Of a stretch of 64,000 nt of DNA, positions 2,183 to 62,116 are shown piece by piece. This DNA is from an uncultured bacterium (lineage in GTDB: Bacteria > Omnitrophota > Omnitrophia > Omnitrophales > Abzuiibacteriaceae). Numbering within the stretch: the first letter of the stretch is position 1; each line of letters opens with the position of its first letter. The DNA is taken from positions 1 through 64,000 of the forward strand of contig CAYLXA010000001.1 of assembly GCA_964387845.1 (NCBI GenBank), in the 5' to 3' direction. The notes beneath the pieces were generated by a model that saw nothing but the letters and a program-made list of their open reading frames with translations, ran no database searches and was not told the DNA's origin. Made by a program: the position numbers and the translations under genes.

Positions 2183-2974
2183 TCACGAGCGCGATAATTC
2201 TTTCGCCCGCTTGACCGCTTTTTTCAATGCTTCTTCTACAATTTTGGGCAATTTTCTTTTGAACATCACTTTGAGCGCTGCGTCCGTCGTGCCTTTCTTC
2301 GAAGTGACGCGGGCACGCAGAACAGCCGGTGAGTCTTTCGCGCACGACGCGAGCTTCGCGGAGCCGAGCGCCGTTTGGATCGCGAGCTGGTTGGCTTGTG
2401 CTTCGGACAGTCCACTTTTTTTGGCGTAGCTAGCCAATAACTCCATCAATAAAAAGAAATACGCGGGGCCGCTGCCGCTCACGGCGGTCACTAAGTCTAA
2501 ATATTTTTCAGACGTTCGGATCACTTTGCCGCATGCGGAGAAAATCACTTCCGCTTTTTTTAATCCTTTTGCATCACCCGTCACAGCCGTCATCGATTCG
2601 CCGACAACCGCACCCAAATTCGGCATGGCGCGCACGACGGTGAAATTCTTACCCAAATGTTTTTTGATTTTCGAAACCGGCGTTCCGGCCAAAATAGAAA
2701 TCACGGTGTGACGTTTCGTTAAACCTGCTTTTAATTCCTTCGCAACATTCGCGAGCTCTTGTGGTTTAATCGCGAGAATCACGATACTTGAACTTTTAAG
2801 CACATCGCGATTGTTTCGCACTACGCGAACTCTATACCGCGAGAGATTTCTGGCGTAGGGATCGTGGACAAAAATCTGGCCGGGCGAAGCGAGCTTCTTC
2901 TGCAGAATTCCCTGCAAAATGCCGCCGCCCATGTTGCCGCAGCCGATAAATCCGATTTTTTGGTTTAACATCAT
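2183..2974 (-). CDS. proC: Pyrroline-5-carboxylate reductase
   Basis: 'IGFIGCGNMGGGIL' NAD(P)-binding N-terminus with ProC family similarity throughout. The start is placed at MMLNQK because the longer ORF runs into the palindromic repeat. Confidence 0.8.
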   Translation of the reverse strand: MMLNQKIGFIGCGNMGGGILQGILQKKLASPGQIFVHDPYARNLSRYRVRVVRNNRDVLKSSSIVILAIKPQELANVAKELKAGLTKRHTVISILAGTPVSKIKKHLGKNFTVVRAMPNLGAVVGESMTAVTGDAKGLKKAEVIFSACGKVIRTSEKYLDLVTAVSGSGPAYFFLLMELLASYAKKSGLSEAQANQLAIQTALGSAKLASCAKDSPAVLRARVTSKKGTTDAALKVMFKRKLPKIVEEALKKAVKRAKELSRS

Positions 2975-3871: not shown

Positions 3872-5914
3872 CTAAACCTTATTGAAAACGAGTTTAATAA
3901 ATCCACCTAACAGCAAAATAGCGGGAATAAAGAAAATAGAGACACTAAAGAGAATGGCGTGTTCAGAGCCGCTCAATATAAACGGTTCGCGGGACGACGG
4001 GCTGGCTTTAAATACAAATTTTTCATCCGGGCGCTCAGACATCAGCCATTTAACAATGATGACCAGAAAATCCCGATTCCCGAGCAGCTCAATCCGCGAA
4101 TTCACCAGCCAGTCGCTGTCGCCTATGACCGCCATTTTACCGCCCGACTTTTGCTCCTCCAGCGCGCACACAACCGCCACAGGGCCGGCGATATCTTCCT
4201 TTTCATTAAATTCGGCCTTATCATTTTCCAAATCTGTGAGATTCGTCTCTGCCCAGCTGCCCTTTCCGGTCCGCGCGATTTCGGTAATTTCGATATTGTC
4301 CGGAACGTTGAGGCGCTTGCGGACCGAGCGCGTGACGGGCATGATGACCGGCTTGGTAAAATTTTGGACGCTTGCGTGCGACCCAAAATCGGTGACAACC
4401 ATGGCAAGCTTCTCGACGCCTTGCAGTTGGCTGAATTTATCGATCATCACATTGCGCCCAAAATCAACGCCGAGTTCCCACAAAAACCGCCGGATGTGCT
4501 CGCCTTCTTTGGGAAAGACAGGGTCAACCGCAATCAAAACACTGCCGCCCGATTCAAAATGGCGGCGCAGAACCTCAATCTCATCGCGGCTTAAGTCCGA
4601 ATGCGGGCCGGCCAGCAAAATCAAATCTTGCGGATTCAAATCTTCAATGCGGGTCAAAACCGATTCCTGCAATTCATACCGCAGACTTTTGATTTTGGCC
4701 GCGAGGTTTTCATAGCCCATCTCATTTTGATCCGCGAGACTCGGCTCACCGTGCCCGATGGCAAAAAAAATCCGGCGTTCGCGTTTTTCCAGGAACGACG
4801 CGAGCGCGGCGGTAATTTTATTTTCATCCGGAAAACTGACCGTCATTTTTTTCCCTTTTGCTTCGACAATGGTCGCGCCGTAAGCGTCGACACGGTTTTC
4901 GAGCGCTTCCTCGGGATTTTGATCGGGATCGACGAGTTTGTACTTGAAGCCCGGCGCACGATAAGCGTATTCTTGGAGCACATTCTCAACATTTTTAAAA
5001 TTGACATCGCGGCGCGATAAAAACGCCGTGATTAAAATGGGGTCACGCCCGAATTGTTTTAAAACACCTTCGGTTTGTACGGAAAGAAGATTCTGGTTGG
5101 TGTCTGATAAATCAATCCGGCGTAAAAATTCGGGCGGCAATACGCAGAGCAGCGCAATCACGGCAAGGCTTGTGATGATCCGGCCGTTCGACTTTGATTT
5201 TTGCTTTTTGGCGTAAAAAAGTGTCCGGCTGAAAATAATCCAAACGCACACAGTGTAAATTAAAATCGCTTTGATATCTAAAATTCCCCGGCTGAATTCA
5301 CCGATAAGCGTAAACGGCAGCCATCTTTGGCCCGGCCACGTAAACTGACCGGCAAACCAAAGCAATCCGCACGTGAATAAAGACGCCAGAAAAGCTCTTT
5401 TCCGGTTTTTATCCGCGGCAGTGAAAAAAATCGAGCATGCAACGAACAAAACCGTGACCAACAGAACACCCAGAAAAGCCGATGCAAGCCGCCCGGAATC
5501 CAACCCGCCTTTCATGATCTGTAAAATAAAGAACCCAAGCGACGACGGCAGTAAAATCAAAATCGAAAACGAAAGTACGGTCAAATATTTTCCCGAAAGC
5601 GTTTTGCCGGCCGTCAACTTGATGAAAATCAGTTTTTGGCTTCGGTGAATAACCAAATCCGCCAGGATCGGAACCGCGATGACCAGCACCCACACCACAT
5701 TGACGAGGTGCGGATGGATGAGCGCCTGGTTCAGGTCAAAAAAGTAGTGTGGATCTTCGGCCAGCCGCTTCACGGAAAGTGCGTGCGCCACATACACATT
5801 GGTCCAAAACAGCATTCCTGTGATGAGCGTTCCCAAGATCAGGAACAAAAATTCAAAAAAGGATGATAACTGAAGGTTTAGAAAGGTCCGGGAAGTTTTT
5901 AGAATGGAACTCAT
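3872..5914 (-). CDS. Fused ABC-2-type permease-like N-terminal domain plus GldG-like ABC-transporter auxiliary domain membrane protein
   Basis: 680 aa. An N-terminal multi-TM segment is followed by a central region ('FFAIGHGEPSLADQNEMGYENLAAKI...LILLAGPHSDLSRDEIEVLRRHFESGGSVLIAVDP') matching the ABC_transp_aux/GldG pattern, with a C-terminal TM anchor. Confidence 0.5.
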   Translation of the reverse strand: MSSILKTSRTFLNLQLSSFFEFLFLILGTLITGMLFWTNVYVAHALSVKRLAEDPHYFFDLNQALIHPHLVNVVWVLVIAVPILADLVIHRSQKLIFIKLTAGKTLSGKYLTVLSFSILILLPSSLGFFILQIMKGGLDSGRLASAFLGVLLVTVLFVACSIFFTAADKNRKRAFLASLFTCGLLWFAGQFTWPGQRWLPFTLIGEFSRGILDIKAILIYTVCVWIIFSRTLFYAKKQKSKSNGRIITSLAVIALLCVLPPEFLRRIDLSDTNQNLLSVQTEGVLKQFGRDPILITAFLSRRDVNFKNVENVLQEYAYRAPGFKYKLVDPDQNPEEALENRVDAYGATIVEAKGKKMTVSFPDENKITAALASFLEKRERRIFFAIGHGEPSLADQNEMGYENLAAKIKSLRYELQESVLTRIEDLNPQDLILLAGPHSDLSRDEIEVLRRHFESGGSVLIAVDPVFPKEGEHIRRFLWELGVDFGRNVMIDKFSQLQGVEKLAMVVTDFGSHASVQNFTKPVIMPVTRSVRKRLNVPDNIEITEIARTGKGSWAETNLTDLENDKAEFNEKEDIAGPVAVVCALEEQKSGGKMAVIGDSDWLVNSRIELLGNRDFLVIIVKWLMSERPDEKFVFKASPSSREPFILSGSEHAILFSVSIFFIPAILLLGGFIKLVFNKV

Positions 5915-9193: not shown

Positions 9194-11203
9194 ATGACAA
9201 ACGCTATCTTCCAGACAGGTTTTTTGATGACGATGTGGGCAGCTGCCGTTTTATCAATCGCCGCCCTGACTGTGGGCGTCAAGCGGCTGAGCGCCATCGC
9301 CCTGTTTTTGATTTTCATGGTGATTGCCGGCTGGGCCTACTTCAGCCAGCAAGCCATGGAACTTATTTTCACGCAAAATGCCGCGCAGCAGTCTTTGCTT
9401 AACCTCGCTTCAATGATTTTGCTTTTACTGCCGCCTCTTTTTTATCATTTAGCCTGCCTCGTGATGCGCAGGTCGTGGACGCTGCGCCTTTCGCTCGGCA
9501 CCATTTATGCCCTGCATCTATTTTTTGTCGGGCTTATTAATTATCGATATGTGCCAGAAGGCGACGAATCGTTCGCGATCCACTTTTGGTTTTTTCAAAT
9601 TTTCCTGTCTGATCTTTACCGCACACTCTTCTTTGCGACTTTCATAGCGGCTATCATCCGCATGGCCCAGTTTCACGTCGAAGTCAACGGGCGACTCCGG
9701 TTCCGGGTCCAGTACCTGCTGCTGTCAATTTTTGTGCTCATCGTCGGATATTTGGGCACACCGGGCTTTAGCAACCTGCTTTTCGGGCTTGATCCGATGC
9801 CGCAAATGCTGCTCGCGTTTCCCTGCTTTGCACTGCTTACTTCTTACGCGATTTTATCCAATGCAACGATGAGCATTCAGCGGGGCACGGTCCGGTTCTC
9901 GATTTTCGCGGCTGTCATCGCCAGTTTCGTCTGGTGCCTGATGACGCTCAGCGCGATTTTGCCGGTCTACGCCGGAAGGCTTGAACTCATCCATCCTTAT
10001 CTGGCGCAAATCCTGGCTGCAGTCATCGTGACCGGTGTTTACATCACCGCATACCGTCTGATTCAAAGTTTGGTTAATAAATTCGCCAAAAAACAAAACG
10101 ACGAGGTCCAAAATACCGTTCTGCAGGTTGCTGCCAAAGCCGCATCCGAAAAGAACCTCACGGAAGCCGTCCGGATTTCGATGGATTTTTTAAGAGATTA
10201 TTTCCGGCTCGACGAAGTAGCGCTGCTTGTTAAAGAGGATGAAAAGGACATTTACACGGTGAAATACTGCCACGGGCTCGATTTCTTCCGGTTGAAGGGT
10301 TTTGAAGTTGCTAAGAGCTTGATCAAATGGCTGAACGACAAGCGCCGCTCTTTTATTTTGAGCGAAGAAATGCAGAACATGACACCTTCGGTTTTTTATG
10401 AACATACTTACACGCTGCGCGATTTAAAATTGGAAGCATGCCATCCGCTGTTCATTAAAGAAGTGTTGGGCGGAATTGTGCTTTTGGGTTTCAAAGAGAA
10501 ACGGCAAATTTATACGCAACGGGATCTGAATCTCATCACCATCATGAGCACCATCCTGGCTTCTATTATCGAAAACCAACGGCTGCTGGGCCAGGCAGTC
10601 ACGGATGGTTTGACCGGCCTTTTCCATCAGAAATATTTCAAGGCCCGCCTGGGCGAAGCGCTTGAGCGCAGCAATCATAATAAATCCGAGCTGGCTTTAA
10701 TTTTGCTCGATATTGACCACTTTAAAAAGCTGAATGATACGCAAGGGCACTTGGCCGGTGACCGGGTCCTTCAGGGCATTTCGAAAACACTGCAGGAAAC
10801 CGTCCGTTCAAACGACATTCTCGCCCGCTACGGCGGTGAAGAATTTGCGGTTTTTATTTACAGGCCTTATGCGGGCAACCAAGTCGAAAAACACGACCTT
10901 TTGACCGCCGCGGAACGGCTTGCCGAAAAAATGCGCGTGAATGTGAAGGACAAGAAAATCCTCTACAACGACCGCCTTCTACAGGCAACCATCAGTGTCG
11001 GCGTTGGCTTTAAAGACCCCGGCGAAACCAATCTTTCGGTTCAGGAACTCATTGAAAGAGCGGATCAAGCGCTTTACCACGCCAAACGGCACGGACGCGA
11101 CCGGGTTGCCATTGCCACGCGGTTCGGGATCCGCATTGAAGAACCTTCTATTGAGCCGCCCGACACCGATCCTTTCTCTAAAAATCCGGGCCCCAACGTT
11201 TAA
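9194..11203 (+). CDS. Membrane-anchored sensor diguanylate cyclase (multi-TM N-terminus, GAF, GGDEF)
   Basis: 'RYGGEEFAVFIY' GGEEF active site. The domain is preceded by a GAF-like region and an N-terminal hydrophobic domain of about 7 TM helices. Confidence 0.85.
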   Translation: MTNAIFQTGFLMTMWAAAVLSIAALTVGVKRLSAIALFLIFMVIAGWAYFSQQAMELIFTQNAAQQSLLNLASMILLLLPPLFYHLACLVMRRSWTLRLSLGTIYALHLFFVGLINYRYVPEGDESFAIHFWFFQIFLSDLYRTLFFATFIAAIIRMAQFHVEVNGRLRFRVQYLLLSIFVLIVGYLGTPGFSNLLFGLDPMPQMLLAFPCFALLTSYAILSNATMSIQRGTVRFSIFAAVIASFVWCLMTLSAILPVYAGRLELIHPYLAQILAAVIVTGVYITAYRLIQSLVNKFAKKQNDEVQNTVLQVAAKAASEKNLTEAVRISMDFLRDYFRLDEVALLVKEDEKDIYTVKYCHGLDFFRLKGFEVAKSLIKWLNDKRRSFILSEEMQNMTPSVFYEHTYTLRDLKLEACHPLFIKEVLGGIVLLGFKEKRQIYTQRDLNLITIMSTILASIIENQRLLGQAVTDGLTGLFHQKYFKARLGEALERSNHNKSELALILLDIDHFKKLNDTQGHLAGDRVLQGISKTLQETVRSNDILARYGGEEFAVFIYRPYAGNQVEKHDLLTAAERLAEKMRVNVKDKKILYNDRLLQATISVGVGFKDPGETNLSVQELIERADQALYHAKRHGRDRVAIATRFGIRIEEPSIEPPDTDPFSKNPGPNV

Positions 11204-15916: not shown

Positions 15917-16187
15917 GACGAAACCGCGTCTGGAGGCTGCCCGAGCATGGTGGCAAGAATGGGCTTCTCATCCAGCACCGGCACTCGAGCCGCTCCTGCG
16001 GCGCCTCGGTGCCTTCGCTCTCGCTCTTGGGACTTCGCCTTCGGCGAAGACCAAGCTCCCAAGAGCTCCGAGAGATGCTTCTTGAGAAGCCCATTCTTGC
16101 CGAGGGCAGCTGGAAGTCGAGTGAGGATTTCTCGCTGGGAAATCCGAGCGTCGGTAGAGTCGATTGTCTGAGTTAAGTTAAAATGTC
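15894..16187. repeat. GC-rich ~300-nt repeat element with terminal inverted repeats (copy X); overlaps the start of the amidase gene
   Basis: It begins 'gacattttaacaacgaagac' and ends 'gttaaaatgtcc'. It is alignable at roughly 60-65% identity along its length with 59085-59386, with shared blocks (cgcgtctgRagg, ggaagtcgagtgaRga, gagcgtcgg, gtctgag). Confidence 0.6.
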
Positions 16188-27039: not shown

Positions 27040-27215
27040 CAAAGATCGTGGCGGATCCGCTAAGCAGTGTGGCGGAGGTAAACTAACTGAAAAGTTGGGG
27101 CGCAAAGCAAGAGGTCCGAAATGAAATTAAAAGGATGGCTCGGCTGCCGAAATTCATATTCAGAATTTGGAATAAACGCCCGTACTTTTTAGTACGGGCG
27201 TTTATGTTTTTATGG
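27040..27215 (+). promoter_or_regulatory. Candidate c-di-GMP-I (GEMM) riboswitch with an intrinsic-terminator expression platform in the 5' leader of the pilin-like gene
   Basis: 27071-27106 'GGCGGAGGUAAACU-AACU-GAAA-AGUU-GGGGCGCAAAGC' matches the GEMM core 'GGCAAACC-stem-GNRA-stem-GGGACGCAAAGCC' with identical spacing. A 13-bp perfect hairpin plus U-tract sits at 27174-27212, and the ATG is at 27226. Confidence 0.5.
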
Positions 27216-27225
27216 AGAAAAACGG

Positions 27226-28218
27226 ATGAAGCAAAAAAAGTTGGGTGTAACGCTGGTTGAAATCATGATTGTGGTTGCCATCATCGGTATAGTGGCAGCA
27301 TTCGCAATCCCCAACTATCTACGTTCAAGGCAAACAGCCGATACCGCTTCTTTGGAACAAACCGCACGTCAGATTGCGCAAAAAATGGAACAAATTTTCT
27401 GGGGCCAGAATCCAAACGAATATCCGCCGGAATTGTCGATGCCTTCCGGGCTTGTCACGTGGGCTGCGCCAACCAACTTGGGCAATATTCAAGATTTGCT
27501 TGAATTGCTCAAGAAAATTTGTGAACAACAGGGTAAAAGCTTGTCATCCGGCCAAATCGGAGATTTGACGGCCTCTGAAATTGCTGCCGATCCCGAAGCC
27601 ATGCAAGCGCTCGTTGAAACTTGTTTCCAGAACAATCCGCCACTAACATACACAACACCGGCCGGCGGACAAACCTATTTATTTTCTGTGTCATCACCCA
27701 ATGGAACCAACTACACGGCAAGCCCGGGCGGCGTCAGCCAAACGCCTCCCGATTGCACCGGTGATGCCGGATGCGATGACGGTGTTTATTGCAATGGTGT
27801 TGAAACCTGCCAGTACGGAAGCTGCCAGGCCGGAATTAGTCCGTGCGACGAAGGATATACCTGCCACGAATCTTATCAGGAATGTACTGAGGGCATCTGC
27901 GGAAACGGTATTTGGGAAGGTTATGAAGAATGCGGTGAAGAAGATACGGGATTTAGTTATGAATTCATGGAATGCATTAATTGCCGCTGGGAATTCGTCG
28001 GCTGCCCAGAGGGTTACTATTTCTACGACTGGGCATGCTATCCATCGCCGCCCGACTGCCCATCAGGCTCTTACAAACAACCCGGTCTCGGATGCTGTTG
28101 GCCCGATCCCGGCATGCCGCCGTGGCCAAGACCTATTCAACTGCCTACTTGCGGAGAAGTCGCTGAAGTAATCCCGGATGGCGGCGGGCCCCCTCCGATG
28201 GACGACCCGTCATTTTAA
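27226..28218 (+). CDS. Prepilin-type (GspG/type IV pilin-like) protein with a large Cys-rich C-terminal domain
   Basis: N-terminal 'KKLGVTLVEIMIVVAIIGIVAAFAIPNY' class III signal/methylation motif. The C-terminal 160 aa contain about 30 Cys in CGNG..E.CGE-type repeats (myxobacterial Cys-rich-repeat-like). Confidence 0.75.
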   Translation: MKQKKLGVTLVEIMIVVAIIGIVAAFAIPNYLRSRQTADTASLEQTARQIAQKMEQIFWGQNPNEYPPELSMPSGLVTWAAPTNLGNIQDLLELLKKICEQQGKSLSSGQIGDLTASEIAADPEAMQALVETCFQNNPPLTYTTPAGGQTYLFSVSSPNGTNYTASPGGVSQTPPDCTGDAGCDDGVYCNGVETCQYGSCQAGISPCDEGYTCHESYQECTEGICGNGIWEGYEECGEEDTGFSYEFMECINCRWEFVGCPEGYYFYDWACYPSPPDCPSGSYKQPGLGCCWPDPGMPPWPRPIQLPTCGEVAEVIPDGGGPPPMDDPSF

Positions 28219-29525: not shown

Positions 29526-30779
29526 TTGCACATGAAAACTTCAAAAAAATATGGTTTAACGCTGGTTGAAATTGTGATTGTGGTAGCGCTCATCGCACTT
29601 GTTTCAATGATCGCAATTCCCAACTTTATGCGCAACCATCAAACCGCCAATTCACAATCTTTTGCTCAAACCATTAAACAAATTGCCCAGAAACTGGAGT
29701 TGATATTCTGGGGCCAGAACCCAAACGAATATCCGCCCGTATCCGCCTTTACAAACGGCCTGCAAACCTGGGCAGCGCCTACGAACCTCGGAAACATCGA
29801 GGATTTGGAGCGGCTTCTTCAAAAAGCATGTGAAGAAATTCTAAAACAAAATTTCAGCGCGGCTTCTCTCAACGATCAAACAGTATTTGCCCAGGAACTC
29901 TTTAATTGCCTTGACGGGCATGTGATTGATTATATTGTCACCGAAGACTTACAAAATTATTGGTTTAATTTTGCGGATCCATACACGACCGGCTATTACA
30001 GCATCGGAAATGGTTTTAGCGAACCTAAATACAACGATCCCGTAGTGCCGGCTCCTCCGCCTCCTCCGCCGCCAGCTTGCGGAAACGGCATTGCTGACGC
30101 AGGAGAGTTTTGCGGCGAGCCCCAATTTCCGGGCTGTCACGCAGGTACAACCTGCATTAACTGTCAATGCGAAGCAATAGCAGGCTGTGGTGGCTTCTCA
30201 GGAGGAAGCTGTAATCCTAATTTTCCATCTACCTGTCCGCCCGGATATTCTTGCCATGCACAATGCCGCCAATGCGTGTTCAATAATTGGAACCCTACCG
30301 GGGGCGGCAGCTGTTTTGTCGGTGATACGCAAATTTTGATGACGGACGGAAGCACAAAAGCCATTAGCGATATTCAGGTAGGCGATCAAGTCGCCAGCTA
30401 TAATGAAGAAACTAAAACGGTGGTAGTATCAAAGGTTGATAAATTACTAATCCACGATCCGGAAATTTATTGGATCATCAACGATCGAATCAAAGTAACG
30501 CCGAACCACAGCTTTTATATTGACGGAAAATGGAAGCATATTGGACAAGCTGAGCTGGGTGACAACATGCTCAAGCATGACGGAAATCAGGAAGCTATTG
30601 TAAAAATGGAACTAATTACTATTAAAGAACCTATTTACAACTTGGAAATTCAGGACACGCACACCTACTATGCGGAAGGGGTCTTGGTACATAATGCAAT
30701 CAAGGGGTATACTCCCGGTTGGACGCATGGAAACATGGACGGAATTGAAGCGCCGGACGGTGATGGGGACGGCGGTTGA
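29526..30779 (+). CDS. Prepilin-type (GspG-like) protein with a Pro-run, a Cys-rich module and a C-terminal Hint (intein-like/BIL) autoprocessing domain
   Basis: N-terminus 'KKYGLTLVEIVIVVALIALVSMIAIPNF', paralogous to 27226. The Hint domain lies at nt 30312-30695. Confidence 0.75.
   Translation: MHMKTSKKYGLTLVEIVIVVALIALVSMIAIPNFMRNHQTANSQSFAQTIKQIAQKLELIFWGQNPNEYPPVSAFTNGLQTWAAPTNLGNIEDLERLLQKACEEILKQNFSAASLNDQTVFAQELFNCLDGHVIDYIVTEDLQNYWFNFADPYTTGYYSIGNGFSEPKYNDPVVPAPPPPPPPACGNGIADAGEFCGEPQFPGCHAGTTCINCQCEAIAGCGGFSGGSCNPNFPSTCPPGYSCHAQCRQCVFNNWNPTGGGSCFVGDTQILMTDGSTKAISDIQVGDQVASYNEETKTVVVSKVDKLLIHDPEIYWIINDRIKVTPNHSFYIDGKWKHIGQAELGDNMLKHDGNQEAIVKMELITIKEPIYNLEIQDTHTYYAEGVLVHNAIKGYTPGWTHGNMDGIEAPDGDGDGG
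30312..30695 (+). other. Hint/intein-like domain (blocks A, B, F, G) inside the pilin-like CDS
   Basis: The intein/Hint splicing blocks are present: 'CFVGDTQILMTDGS', 'TPNH' (TxxH), '...YNLEIQDTHTYYAEGVLVHN'. No endonuclease domain is present, and the +1 residue is Ala. Confidence 0.75.
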
Positions 30780-32222: not shown

Positions 32223-32394
32223 AATTGTTAGGATAAAAAATGCGAGCGAGAGGACTTGACGCCTCCAGCTCATTGTCAGCTTCATAATTTGCTTTGCAAA
32301 TTATTCAGCTATTTCGCTTCCGGTCGGTCAGCCGCAGCTTCGAATGAAGTCGATACTCCTAGACGTCGCATCTCCATTTATTTGGCTCAGCTGT

Positions 32395-32460
32395 TCCCAT
32401 TCAAGTCCTGTCATCCATTGTTTTAATTTGGCCTTGAGAAGAAATAAAAGTGATGCTTCG
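32395..32460. repeat. Inverted duplicate of the tRNA-Leu 3' end plus its 3' flank
   Basis: 32395-32460 is the reverse complement, at roughly 85% identity, of 32533-32600 (includes 'ttcaagtcctg', 'cattgttttaatttggcc', 'aaataaaagtgatgcttc'). Confidence 0.7.
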
Positions 32461-32577
32461 CCGCGAGTTCCGCAGGCATCAACCACTTTGTATTTAAGTA
32501 AATATAGAGATGCCGAGGACTGTCTGAGCGCCGAAGCATCACTTTTATTTTGATACGATAAGGCCAAATTAAAACAA

Positions 32578-32658
32578 TGCGCGGGACAGGACTTGAACCT
32601 GCACTCCTTGCGGAACCAGCCCCTCAAGCTGGCGTGTCTGCCATTTCACCACCCGCGC
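32578..32658 (-). tRNA. tRNA-Leu (anticodon GAG), 81 nt with a long variable arm
   Basis: GCGCGGGTGGTGAAATGGCAGACACGCCAGCTTGAGGGGCTGGTTCCGCAAGGAGTGCAGGTTCAAGTCCTGTCCCGCGCA. The cloverleaf has a GTTCAAGTC T-loop and a CTTGAGG anticodon loop. Confidence 0.85.
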
Positions 32659-32935
32659 AAATATAAGCCACTAATCGAAATTTAAAGTCAAAACTGAATA
32701 AGCTGTCACGCCAGCGAAGCGGCGTGTCTGTCCCAGAGTTTCCATAGACTGGTATTCGATTTTTAATTGTAACTCTGGGACTGCCCTGACTTCCGATTAA
32801 AACCCTACTTGTACATCAATGTGAGTCAGGGCTGCCATTTCACCACCCGCGCATAACATAAACTACTAACTAAAATCTAATAAGAAAACGTGATAAGCCG
32901 TCACGCCAGCAAAGCGGGTATTATAGGAAGATTAA
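32659..32935 (-). repeat. Degenerate upstream duplicate of the tRNA-Leu 5' region, interrupted in the D-loop by a two-hairpin ~105-nt element. It also carries a second direct repeat of the tRNA promoter-proximal sequence.
   Basis: Minus strand: 'GCGCGGGTGGTGAAATGGCAG' (32852-32832), then hairpins CCCTGAC..GTCAGGG and TCCCAGAG..CTCTGGGA, then 'ACACGCC...'. A ~95-nt direct repeat is shared with the region immediately 5' of the genuine tRNA. Confidence 0.6.
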
Positions 32936-32957
32936 CAGATAAAGTAAACGGGAATCC

Positions 32958-33407
32958 TTAATGGCCTAAATGATACGGGAGCTTCCGAATGATGGTAAAA
33001 GCCCTATAGACTTGTTCAGCCGCCACAACCGCCGCTAGTTCATGCGGAAGCGTCATTGGTCCAAAACTCCATCTAAAATCAGGTGCGATTTGCTTAATAT
33101 CCGAAAGTCCGTCAGGCCCGCCGATCACGATTTGAAGCTCCTTTGTTCCGGATTGAAGCTCAGTGTCGATCCGTCTCGCCAATTCTTCCGATGAAACCAT
33201 TCGGGATCCGGTATTAAAATCGCAAAACCAGATTTTAACGCCGGATTTTTTCTGATATTGGTCGGCGGAGAAACTCTTAGCTTCAACGGATGAGAATTGA
33301 GAAATGCGCTTCGTGTATTCGGAAAATAATCCGAAGGATTCCGGGTTTTTGAATGATTTAGCGGCAATGTTTCCGCTTTTCTGCCACGCCAGGCAAAATT
33401 GGATTTT
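32958..33407 (-). CDS. rlmH: 23S rRNA (pseudouridine1915-N3)-methyltransferase RlmH (SPOUT)
   Basis: 'MKIQFCL...', 'LQIVIGGPDGLSDI', 'SFGPMTLPHELAAVVAAEQVYRAF...LPYH' are colinear with E. coli RlmH. Confidence 0.75.
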   Translation of the reverse strand, partial: KIQFCLAWQKSGNIAAKSFKNPESFGLFSEYTKRISQFSSVEAKSFSADQYQKKSGVKIWFCDFNTGSRMVSSEELARRIDTELQSGTKELQIVIGGPDGLSDIKQIAPDFRWSFGPMTLPHELAAVVAAEQVYRAFTIIRKLPYHLGH

Positions 33408-33523
33408 CATAGGTAAATTTTGCAGCCCTAAAATATTGATGACCAATCATCTATTTGTTGAGATTTTAGGGCAGCATTTACTTTTGATTAATAAACGAAT
33501 TGACGCTTTAAGGAAAGTAAACG

Positions 33524-33594
33524 CTGGGAGACCTGGATTCGAACCAAGATTGCCTGATCCAGAGTCAGGAGTGCTACCGTTGCACCATCTCCCA
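33524..33594 (-). tRNA. tRNA-Pro (anticodon TGG), approximately 71 nt
   Basis: TGGGAGATGGTGCAACGGTAGCACTCCTGACTCTGGATCAGGCAATCTTGGTTCGAATCCAGGTCTCCCAG. Anticodon loop CTCTGGA, T-loop TTCGAAT. The exact ends are uncertain. Confidence 0.6.
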
Positions 33595-33680
33595 ATGATC
33601 GAACATCGAACGTCGAACGTCGTGATTCGAAAACCGATCTACCATCTAGATAGTCACAATCCGAGGTTCGATGTTCGGCT

Positions 33681-33938
33681 TTATTTATTCAAACAACATT
33701 TCTTATACTTTTTTCCGCTGCCGCAGGGACAAGGATCATTGCGCCCGGCTTTGGCGTGCGGAATATCCTGGATGTCCGCTTTTACTTTCGCCGCGTCTTT
33801 CTTTTTCGCATCCTGCTCCACATGATGCTCGGCATCTTGGCGCATTTTCAGATGCGATTTATCCCGAAAAGAAAGCAAATGGCCCTTGCCCGCTTTTAAC
33901 TGCTGAACTTCTTTCTGGCGATTGTCTATTTGTTTCAT
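33681..33938 (-). CDS. SEC-C motif small metal-binding protein (YecA/SecA C-terminal-like)
   Basis: C-terminal '[14 protein letters not shown]'. Confidence 0.6.
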
Positions 33939-54120: not shown

Positions 54121-54317
54121 TGCGCCCGGCCGGAATTGAACCAGCAACCCTCTCCTTAGGACGGAGATGCTCTATCCAATTGTCCTGACTTTCATTAAAA
54201 CCCCAATGCGTTTATTCATCGGAAGTCAGGACTACCCTTGCGCTTTCATTAAAACCGATTCATTCGGTCTATCAGTAGCGCAAGGGTTGAGCTACAGGCT
54301 TAGTAAATTTTAATATC
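54121..54317 (-). pseudogene. Second tRNA-Arg(CCT)-like copy with a degenerate acceptor stem and a ~110-nt two-hairpin insertion in the D-loop
   Basis: Minus strand: 'GCCTGTAGCTCAA' + [CCCTTGCGC...GCGCAAGGG, GTCCTGAC...GTCAGGAC] + 'AATTGGATAGAGCATCTCCGTCCTAAGGAGAGGGTTGCTGGTTCAATTCCGGCCGGGCGCA'. Confidence 0.6.
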
Positions 54318-54391
54318 TGCCCTCGGCCGGAATTGAACCAGCAACCCTCTCCTTAGGACGGAGATGCTCTATCCAATTGAGCTACGAGGGC
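54318..54391 (-). tRNA. tRNA-Arg (anticodon CCT), 74 nt
   Basis: GCCCTCGTAGCTCAATTGGATAGAGCATCTCCGTCCTAAGGAGAGGGTTGCTGGTTCAATTCCGGCCGAGGGCA. Confidence 0.9.
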
Positions 54392-54469
54392 ACAATTGTA
54401 GCATTTTATCATAAAACCACGGGGAGATATTCCGAAACTTACAGATAAAAATAAGCCGCAAACGGGAGA

Positions 54470-55003: not shown

Positions 55004-55089
55004 AAGAACCTATTTCGGAATGTGGATTGCGGAATGCGGATTGACCAAATTTTCAATCCGAAATCCGAAATCTGAAATTCGCAATTGAA

Positions 55090-59084: not shown

Positions 59085-59386
59085 GTACATTTTAACAGCG
59101 AAGACCTCAGCTGAGACGCGTCTGAAGGCTCGAGCGGGCATGGGGGGGCGGCAAGGGATATCTTCCGGCACCGGCAGTTCGGCTCTTCCTGCGAGAGCCG
59201 CCTGCCTCGGCGCTCACCGTTTGAATCCCGCCAGAAACGGCGGGAGCCAAGCTTCAAACGGTTGCGCGACGTGCCTACAGATATTCCTTGCCGCCGAGTG
59301 AGAGCCGGAAGTCGAGTGAAGACTTGCCTCGCCGGGGCAAGTCGAGCGTCGGCGAAGCTGAGAGTCTGAGCAAAGTTAAAATGTGC
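59085..59386. repeat. GC-rich ~300-nt repeat element with terminal inverted repeats (copy Y)
   Basis: It starts 'gtacattttaacagcgaagacctcagctgag' and ends 'gtctgagcaaagttaaaatgtgc'. It is homologous to 15894-16187 in the same orientation. Confidence 0.6.
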
Positions 59387-61957: not shown

Positions 61958-62116
61958 AATGATTGCCTCCGATGCTCAGCTACATTAAAGCTACCCGCAG
62001 AATATCAATTGAAGCTGAGTATCGCCCCTAGGAGCGTTTTTCAGCGACGTGGGGCTACCTTAATTTAAAGTACCTGCTATCCGTAACGAGGCCAACCTTG
62101 AGCCTCGCGCGGAAGC

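Follow-up and report, generated by a model that had tools for sequence, protein, structure and literature searches.

Palindromic repeat units at tRNA genes in an uncultured bacterium of the phylum Omnitrophota

The 64,000-nucleotide stretch of DNA analysed here, referred to as the window, comprises positions 1 to 64,000 of contig CAYLXA010000001.1 of an uncultured Omnitrophota bacterium (family Abzuiibacteriaceae; assembly GCA_964387845.1), and two of its tRNA loci, those of tRNA-Leu(GAG) and tRNA-Arg(CCT), each carry two small hairpins in tandem. Both doublets lie inside the D-loop-coding part of tRNA-derived sequence, namely of a 5' fragment of tRNA-Leu and of a second copy of tRNA-Arg, and both follow the dinucleotide CA. 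We regard it as probable, though far from certain, that these hairpins belong to a lineage-restricted family of palindromic repeats that resemble repetitive extragenic palindromic (REP) sequences and bacterial interspersed mosaic elements (BIMEs), occur as single units or tandem doublets and are enriched at tRNA genes, and that they do not represent a new kind of gene. We favour this reading because the units are non-coding, keep their structure with a free stem sequence, share an interior, and occur as singles and doublets and in both orientations.

Structure and copies of the hairpin family

Each unit measures about 50 nt and consists of a closing stem of 8-10 bp, whose sequence is free and whose pairing is kept, and of a conserved A/T-rich interior that runs from ACTTYNRATKAATAAWCG at the 5' side to YTTTAATGRAA at the 3' side. 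Aligned over 12 units, the consensus reads G..CT.ACTTC.AAT.AATAATC.AATTG...TTTTAATGAAAGT.AG..C, and the conserved interior could be a protein-binding site. The six hairpins that were found first all fold far better than shuffled sequences; as RNA, the four window hairpins of the Leu and Arg loci reach z = -4.0 to -7.0 in comparison to dinucleotide shuffles, and the whole modules, folded as DNA, reach z = -4.7 and -8.0. In the 10-bp closing stem of the 12 units, 85% of the cells are paired, versus 61% in shuffles (0 of 500 shuffles reach the observed value), 9 of the 10 pairs are altered on both sides, cells with a double change number 34 versus 11 ± 3 in shuffles, and the covariation score of 0.70 falls to 0.08-0.23 when the partner column is slid. 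The original prediction had assigned the hairpins of the two loci to one structured element family whose differing stems maintain pairing, and had held this against random decay; the shared interior, the covariance model described below and the pairing kept across 12 units bear out these points. Covariation of the stems is, taken alone, insufficient to demonstrate a function as RNA: REPs, which are recognized as single-stranded DNA, behave alike, and transcription would read some units in one orientation and some in the other.

Covariance models were run on 140 kb of DNA, the 64-kb window plus about 76 kb of relatives' sequence. A first model (R1), trained on four units, detected as additional members a doublet at tRNA-Gln in the window and its ortholog in the relative L033, a single unit at 61972-62022, a doublet in the relative L031 and one hairpin, X, in the relative L046. 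The two Gln units of the window, on which R1 had not been trained, scored 21.8 bits (E 0.009) and 33 bits (E 2e-5); such E-values are rough, and the assignment of the weakest members (19-22 bits) leans also on their hairpin, motif and doublet position. In L046, X is one of two hairpins between the adenine phosphoribosyltransferase (APRT) gene and a reversed tRNA-Arg; the other, Y, carries TTTTAATGAAA, and its 3' arm overlaps the tRNA-Arg 3' end. A second model (R2), built from all 12 units, found nothing beyond the known units in the 140 kb. A strict hairpin-plus-motif descriptor picked up known units only; a relaxed descriptor was dropped as non-specific, as it gave 61 sites versus 61-89 in shuffles. 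The window thus contains 7 units and the relatives' DNA 8 more, all of them non-coding, arranged as singles or, more often, as head-to-tail doublets with a linker of 0-1 nt, and placed in either orientation, with the motif strand being sense at Leu and Arg and antisense at Gln. Copies beyond the two loci, whose absence would have counted against the original prediction, thus occur in the window and in relatives. Two inverted repeats of the window, 15952-16101 (inside a 924-aa open reading frame, ORF) and 59147-59295, have arms of 25-26 nt (84-88% complementary) about 99 nt apart, and neither matches the hairpin family model.

Non-coding DNA makes up 8.5% of the window and tRNA-adjacent spacers about 15-20% of this non-coding DNA, and 3 of the 4 insertion sites in the window are adjacent to tRNA genes, for which our binomial estimate, based on small numbers, is p ~0.01. 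An association with tRNA genes is supported to this extent. A specificity for the D-loop is not, as units are also found at tRNA 3' ends, in a tRNA-free intergenic region of a relative, and in a 5' untranslated region (UTR) of the window, where the unit at 61972-62022 lies about 16 nt upstream of a small membrane-protein ORF, with no tRNA-like match nearby.

Large public collections were searched by exact patterns only. The signature GGTTTTAATSRAAGTCAGG had 22 matches among 185,579 species genomes, none with the 5' arm and none in Omnitrophota; AAGGGYAGTCCYGACTTCC had 7 chance matches in the JGI metagenomes; and three exact patterns had 0, 1 and 1 matches in IMG/VR, both of them chance matches in coding sequence. 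A BLASTN search with the Arg module among phages and plasmids gave no match. Exact patterns were defeated because the stems vary too much, whereas the covariance model succeeded.

The tRNA loci and their counterparts in relatives

All features of the Leu and Arg loci are located on the minus strand (Table 1). As the GC skew of the plus strand is negative throughout the window, the leading strand is probably the minus strand, on which nearly all genes and the tRNAs are found; the G-rich strand is the one that bears the Leu and Arg modules. At the Leu locus, the duplicate 5' end of the tRNA upstream of the gene is exact, as predicted (32832-32853, 22/22 identical). It comprises the acceptor 5' strand, the D-stem 5' strand and most of the D-loop, and it is followed by two hairpins linked by a single A and then by the resumed tRNA sequence, of which only the 7 nt ACACGCC match. 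The direct repeat at this locus, which had been estimated at about 95 nt, exists, but its length is about 85 nt (63 nt at 75% plus the exact 22 nt), and its coordinates were a few bases off. The repeated unit consists of GCTTY, the leader and tRNA nt 1-28, and its junctions lie in two similar stretches, CCGCTT where the leader starts and CC(A)GCTT in tRNA nt 27-33, which is the signature of a tandem duplication at microhomology. As the first 21 nt of the leader are a 76% inverted copy of tRNA nt 13-33, the junction of the pseudo-fragment with leader B is a fold-back that forms a third small hairpin, CACGCC/GGCGTG.

The promoter P1 has a GC-rich ACCCGC stretch downstream of its -10 box, and a GC-rich stretch at this position is typical of stable-RNA promoters. 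P1 is probably still the main promoter of tRNA-Leu, so that the hairpin module would lie within the pre-tRNA leader. The candidate promoter P2 was read by eye in the window, where the promoter scan did not flag it, and its counterpart in L033, GTGACA-18-TAGATT, scored 9/12. No canonical terminator was detected after the Leu hairpins. The ORFs 32328-32627 and 33304-33825 overlap tRNAs, have no Pfam match and are regarded as spurious. Directly 3' of tRNA-Leu (32400-32597), a 165-nt palindrome has arms at 32416-32464 and 32528-32579, with GTTTTAAT in the outer arms, and is bracketed by the inverted 13-mer TTCAAGTCCTGTC of the tRNA-Leu T-arm (32400-32412 versus 32585-32597); the sequence 3' of tRNA-Leu in L033 is unlike that of the window.

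L033 is a Logan contig from a different sample and species (SRR6489006) and was assembled independently. Its RlmH is 83% identical to that of the window at the protein level, and only 17 of 49 four-fold sites (35%) are identical, so that neutral sites are saturated between the two. Nevertheless, the Leu locus of L033 has the same order: P1, a 17-nt leader in place of the absent leader A, tRNA nt 1-21, hairpin a, A, hairpin b, ACACGCC, leader, and intact tRNA-Leu. The P1 block is identical at 48/48 positions and the pseudo-fragment with its flanks at 26/26; further identical blocks are GGGACAGACACGC and CGCTGGCGTGACAGCTTATT. The first 20 nt of leader B are likewise unchanged, and the CACGCC/GGCGTG hairpin has the same stem arms, with a loop that differs by 5 nt. 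The hairpin interiors have diverged, and the stems differ yet pair, as in hairpin b with CCCAGAG/CTCTGGG in the window and CCCGAC/GTCGGG in L033. The hairpins are thus conserved in a relative with compensatory stem changes, and since the same architecture occurs in an independent assembly, and since a separately assembled Logan contig from the organism of the window ends precisely where the tRNA-Arg repeat does, an assembly artefact, the other point on which the original prediction could have failed, is unlikely. Homologs of the proteins encoded next to the loci bear Omnitrophica/Omnitrophota names. In distant RlmH homologs, gatCAB lies downstream and tRNA-Leu is absent.

At the Arg locus, the intact tRNA-Arg gene is followed by 18 nt, by GCCTGTAGCTCAA, by two hairpins separated by one A, and by the remainder of the second tRNA-Arg, which is 100% identical to the intact gene over 56 nt from the D-loop to the T-arm. 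In-silico excision of the 107-nt insert yields a sequence in which ARAGORN calls tRNA-Arg(CCT), with 2 mismatches at the top of the acceptor stem. As the D-loops of tRNA-Arg are uninterrupted in the close relatives L029, L002 and L004, the Arg insertion is comparatively recent. The sequences also indicate that units have been copied or exchanged between loci. The Leu doublet of L033 is nearer to the Arg doublet of the window than to the Leu doublet of the window: Arg-b of the window is 80% identical to Leu-b of L033 (z 16), and Arg-a of the window and Leu-a of L033 have a common CCCTTGCGC-type stem (z 7.1). Leu-a of the window, whose stem has been replaced wholesale between the window species and L033, is closest to Arg-b of the window (z 7.8), and their 3' halves align almost base for base (GGGTTTTAAT..AAGTCAGG). 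The Arg doublet of the window is absent in close relatives and yet is similar to the doublet at the Leu locus of a different species, so that copying between loci occurred at least once. The tRNA-Arg(CCT) gene lies between the genes for APRT and 5-formyltetrahydrofolate (5-FTHF) cyclo-ligase, forward in the window and in L029, whereas L002, L004 and L046 have it reversed, and a number of short-read contigs end within it. This suggests that tRNA-Arg(CCT) has been repeatedly duplicated or inverted within the lineage. In the JGI relative L004, a DUF559/MTES_1575 gene (Vsr-like endonuclease fold; 4618-5007) is inserted after the 5-FTHF cyclo-ligase gene and three additional genes lie between APRT and tRNA-Arg, which marks the locus as a rearrangement hot spot. 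In the window, an inverted repeat of GGAAT/GCGGATT-like short repeats (55012-55085) lies between the APRT and sigma-70 genes.

The three D-loop modules share the layout CA^[N-stem...stem-N']A[G-stem...stem-C]A. The insertion junctions, GGCA^G at Leu and CTCA^A at Arg, have only CA in common; inside the modules the units terminate in GGGCA (GGGTA at Arg), and GGACA closes the modules. The 4 bases 5' of the six stems in these modules are GCAG in four cases, GTAG in one and TCAA in one, and other bases precede the stems of the units in L031, in L046 and at 61972. Since unit a opens with a base that pairs with the one next to its 3' arm (G-C at Leu, A-T at Arg), the apparent 3-nt duplication (CAG, CAA) can be read equally as insertion after CA without duplication. 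Both insertions fall in the two variable D-loop pockets, on the 3' side of G18G19 in Leu and on its 5' side in Arg. In L046, 12 nt of the tRNA-Arg 3' end (GTGCRCCTGGAC) stand as a direct repeat on either side of the doublet.

The Gln module begins directly after the tRNA end and is inverted relative to the genes, with its first unit within the RlmH 5' UTR. At 33600-33677, 4 bases upstream of tRNA-Gln, a 16-bp stem (94% complementary) closes a 46-nt loop to form a hairpin, and L033 has unrelated sequence there. In L033, an exact 13-nt duplicate of the tRNA-Gln 5' end (TTGGGAGATGGTG; 9713-9725 versus 9814-9826) lies upstream of the real gene, and the 89-nt spacer between the two is unstructured (z +0.6) and devoid of a hairpin unit. 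Farther from the tRNA loci, the window contains a Gp49-like (DUF891) and HTH_3 gene pair at 120-816 on the minus strand, which is toxin-antitoxin-like and the only obviously accessory pair. On the plus strand, a cyclic di-GMP-I (c-di-GMP-I) riboswitch (27067-27151; Rfam 52.8 bits) precedes an ORF (27226-28218) with a type IV pilin-like N-terminal methylation motif, and the ORF 29526-30779 has a pilin-like N-terminus, a Pro/Cys-rich middle and a C-terminal Hint/intein-like domain (PT-HINT, 3e-14).

Table 1. Features of the tRNA loci and further members of the hairpin family. Coordinates refer to the window unless a relative is named; scores of the covariance models (CM) are in bits, and z values are relative to shuffled sequences.
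Feature	Coordinates	Strand	Description
Resumed tRNA and fold-back junction	32707..32727	-	ACACGCC (tRNA nt 22-28, 32721-32727) pairs with GGCGTG at leader B start
Intact tRNA-Leu(GAG)	32577..32659	-	ARAGORN; Rfam 52.4 bits
Leader copy B	32660..32722	-	75% identical to leader A over 63 nt; candidate promoter P2 directly 5' of intact gene
Hairpin unit Leu-b	32730..32781	-	GTCCCAGAG-N34-CTCTGGGAC; motif CTATGGAAA before 3' arm; CM R1 49 bits; RNA fold z = -4.5
Hairpin unit Leu-a	32783..32832	-	GCCCTGAC-N34-GTCAGGGC; motif GGGTTTTAATCGGAA before 3' arm; b type; CM R1 53 bits; RNA fold z = -4.0
tRNA-Leu 5' pseudo-fragment	32832..32853	-	nt -1 to 21; 22/22 identical to 32638-32659
Leader copy A	32855..32917	-	duplicate of tRNA-Leu upstream spacer; GTGACG -35-like box
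P1 promoter	32920..32948	-	TTTACT-17-TATAAT; consensus scan score 10/12; directly past RlmH stop codon
Gln two-unit module	33425..33524	+	units 33425-33472 and 33474-33524; 1-nt linker; last stem arm adjoins tRNA-Gln 3' end
tRNA-Gln(CTG)	33523-33594	-	ARAGORN, Rfam
Second tRNA-Arg copy, 3' part	54121..54181	-	D-loop to 3' end; acceptor 3' strand CGGGCGC as in relatives
Hairpin unit Arg-b	54182..54232	-	GTCCTGAC ... GGTTTTAATGAAA GTCAGGAC; RNA fold z = -4.5
Hairpin unit Arg-a	54234..54287	-	ACCCTTGCGC ... GGTTTTAATGAAA GCGCAAGGGT; RNA fold z = -7.0; CM R2 33.6 bits (unit in R2 training set)
Second tRNA-Arg copy, 5' part	54287..54299	-	GCCTGTAGCTCAA, nt 3-15; 13/13 identical to L004 tRNA-Arg 5' end
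Intact tRNA-Arg(CCT)	54317..54392	-	acceptor stem GCCCTCG/CGAGGGC; ARAGORN; Rfam 63.3 bits
Single unit	61972..62022	-	CM R1 19.1 bits, E 0.04; 7-bp stem and CTTTAATGT motif
L031 (JGI relative) doublet	2353-2457		no tRNA nearby; CM R1
L033 Gln doublet	9886-9985		ortholog of window 33425-33524; CM R1

Origin of the units and competing explanations

If the units are REP-like repeats, they would be copied as folded single-stranded DNA by a trans-acting enzyme that recognizes hairpins, of the HUH/Y1 type of the REP-associated tyrosine transposases (RAYTs) or similar, and that is encoded elsewhere in the genome. Intense transcription of tRNA genes may expose single-stranded, cloverleaf-folded DNA and so favour them as targets, and insertions within tRNA sequence would survive only beside an intact copy. 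As a D-loop insertion would be lethal in a sole functional gene, the interrupted sequences are expected to be redundant copies; such a spare copy may have arisen at Leu by a microhomology-mediated tandem duplication of the leader together with tRNA nt 1-28, and at Arg as a tandem gene copy. The doublets would be passively transcribed in the pre-tRNA-Leu leader and the tRNA-Arg trailer, and would be removed at tRNA processing. In REPs, a GTAG precedes the palindrome, and the RAYT (TnpA-REP) cleaves single-stranded REP DNA at CT or CA (PMC8266576; PMC3333891; PMC3733652). The GCAG/GTAG heads and CA junctions of the units described here are reminiscent of this arrangement, which is not proof of a common mechanism.

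Several observations weigh against such an origin. The strong conservation of the whole Leu leader, which is kept at saturating divergence with 100%-identical blocks of 48, 26, 13 and 20 nt, is poorly explained by it, as such retention points to some portion of the region, or more, being under selection, and this would not be expected of a repeat that is purely selfish. With about 50 nt and long interiors, the units are larger than classical REPs of 20-40 nt, and the doublets are direct, unlike the inverted BIMEs and REPINs (REP doublets forming hairpins). The 12-nt repeat in L046 suits an att-type duplication better than CA-directed peel-and-paste transposition. Among the approximately 40 ORFs of the 64-kb window that were scanned against Pfam, which are housekeeping genes, there was no integrase, transposase, HUH enzyme or reverse transcriptase; mobilization is therefore something that we infer, as the 64 kb contain no transposase of any kind. 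Finally, no more than 7 units underlie the copy density of about 1 per 9 kb, and the exact-signature scans of species genomes, JGI and IMG/VR gave chance matches only.

A serious rival, which we nonetheless consider unlikely, is that the module is a functional RNA. The P1-driven transcript would be a structured leader or small RNA, composed of a tRNA 5'-half mimic, two hairpins and the CACGCC/GGCGTG hairpin, that regulates or chaperones tRNA-Leu maturation or acts alone, and the interrupted tRNA-Arg would be a tRNA-scaffolded RNA with an expanded D-loop. This would account for the Leu architecture being kept between the window and L033 despite 35% four-fold identity, with the identical blocks listed above, and for stems being maintained by compensatory changes; moreover, the insertion points lie in D-loop pockets that are solvent-exposed in the tRNA, and the Arg copy retains a complete tRNA body. 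However, a role as RNA is difficult to reconcile with units that lie in both orientations to transcription (Gln locus, L046) and outside tRNA contexts, with the wholesale replacement of the Leu-a stem between species, Leu-a of the window being of b type, and with an interrupted Arg copy that close relatives lack and whose acceptor stem is without its top. The Leu pseudo-fragment has no anticodon and T arms, the hairpins are followed by no canonical terminator, and the conservation of P1 would be expected anyway if P1 is the tRNA-Leu promoter.

An improbable variant combines targeting and use: the units would be guided by structure into the unpaired D-loop pockets and the 3' end of the cloverleaf, be it of single-stranded tRNA-gene DNA or of RNA, and the cell would employ the resulting chimeras, the D-loop-expanded tRNA-Arg and the long-conserved Leu leader with its mimic of a tRNA 5' half, as RNAs of a regulatory or scaffolded kind. 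If true, this would be a bacterial counterpart of mobile tRNA intervening sequences. Intervening sequences within tRNA genes are known as group I introns in the anticodon loops of bacterial tRNAs and as archaeal introns with bulge-helix-bulge (BHB) motifs at non-canonical positions, including the D-loop; archaeal tRNA introns are proposed to transpose between tRNA genes. The modules described here share with them the position within a tRNA gene, but they occur in a bacterial genome and not in the anticodon loop and have no match to group I introns or other ribozymes, and the Leu "host" is only a 28-nt fragment, so that splicing could not give a tRNA. A group I tRNA intron was therefore rejected.

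It is very improbable that the hairpins are the surviving ends of an integrase-type element that entered the tRNA genes by a tRNA-like attP and then lost nearly all of its DNA. Integrated elements classically leave a complete tRNA gene beside a partial one (PMC9897764), and the 12-nt direct repeat around the L046 doublet, the 13-nt tRNA-Gln duplicate 89 nt upstream of its gene in L033, and the variation in orientation and copy number of tRNA-Arg among relatives would fit such a history. Direct repeats are indeed present, but at every locus only 100-190 nt lie between the copies, and no integrase was found in the window or at the relatives' loci; an integrative element in the tRNA genes was rejected on these grounds. 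In contrast to the known partial tRNA genes, it is the 5' and not the 3' part that is duplicated at the Leu locus, and the hairpins interrupt the fragment rather than border it: in the D-loop cases tRNA sequence flanks the hairpins left and right, and no more than 3 nt are duplicated. The Leu repeat of the window is explained by a local tandem duplication at microhomology, and units are also found away from tRNAs.

Scars of repair or replication, in which fragile tRNA genes under high transcription would acquire local direct and inverted duplications, and hence palindromes, de novo through template switching or fold-back synthesis, are disfavoured as the origin of the units and hardly probable: the fold-back junction in the leader, the inverted T-arm copy bracketing the 165-nt palindrome 3' of tRNA-Leu, the microhomology junction of the tandem duplication, and the fact that template switching at quasi-palindromes can yield concerted "compensatory" changes would agree with them, but independent fold-backs would not give the specific interior that units share across loci and genomes, and the units are not significantly similar to the tRNAs beside them. 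The duplications of tRNA fragments may stem from integration scars and fold-back repair, but the shared interior of the units does not.

Relation to known systems and significance

Among known systems, the REP/BIME repeats mobilized by RAYTs ("REPtrons") have in common with the units the nature of extragenic palindromic hairpins whose structure is kept more than their stem sequence and which are often paired with a short linker; the tetranucleotide 5' of the stem (here GCAG/GTAG) and the CA junctions recall theirs. They differ from these systems by their conserved A/T-rich interior of about 30 nt, by their head-to-tail pairing, by a GTAG in only one of the six units of the D-loop modules, by a 64-kb window in which no RAYT gene was seen, and by their marked association with tRNA genes, including insertion within tRNA-derived sequence. 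Rickettsia palindromic elements are likewise palindromic repeats tolerated inside functional genes; they are, however, longer and high-copy, and the genes that they occupy are still functional, whereas here redundant tRNA copies are hit and the intact genes are untouched.

The original prediction had offered three identities for the element, none of which could be substantiated. The first was a palindrome-associated transposable element (PATE) of the IS200/IS605 type. Such elements are small and non-autonomous, with a different hairpin at each end, and the order a then b in two of the three D-loop modules is similar; likewise, there are no clear inverted terminal repeats, insertion would occur 3' of a short sequence, and single-strand chemistry on the lagging-strand template is possible (PMC6006769). 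However, the junctions lie 0-1 nt from the hairpin foot and leave no room for a guide tetranucleotide and an offset cleavage site, the targets share only CA, the Leu module of the window is b-b, and the repeated entity is the unit and not the pair, since singles exist; with no TnpA/TnpB in the 64-kb window, this identity is unproven. The second, a MITE (miniature inverted-repeat transposable element) of DDE type, was rejected, as the module ends share only CCC/GGG and the flanking repeats of 3, 3 and 12 nt at three sites are not target duplications of a fixed length. The third, an origin from tRNA, was rejected as well: local alignments of the units to three tRNAs were no better than those of shuffles, with the exception of the arm of hairpin Y in L046, which itself overlaps the tRNA.

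At the Leu and Arg loci, Rfam detected tRNAs only, down to E = 10, with no intron or ribozyme; over the whole window, the matches at threshold were tRNAs and the one c-di-GMP-I riboswitch, and an RsmY-like match of 17.7 bits (threshold 57) was not significant. Hammerhead or other ribozymes, integron attC sites and a loop-bulge pseudoknot were rejected because their core motifs, inspected by eye, are not conserved between orthologs, with nothing found by Rfam, and the idea that the doublet of L046 is circularly permuted relative to that of the window was rejected because hairpin X of L046 has no clear a/b identity.

If the REP-like reading holds, the units represent an undescribed repeat family in a poorly studied phylum, the Omnitrophota, with unusual insertion sites within D-loop-coding tRNA sequence and flush with tRNA 3' ends. 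At a practical level, such insertions, together with tRNA fragments, break assemblies and confuse tRNA annotation. The family would offer a tractable case for how hairpin repeats choose their targets, be it that strong transcription of a gene exposes single-stranded DNA or that a structure is recognized, for how tRNA loci absorb insertions through duplication, and for whether the repeats come to join pre-tRNA leaders.

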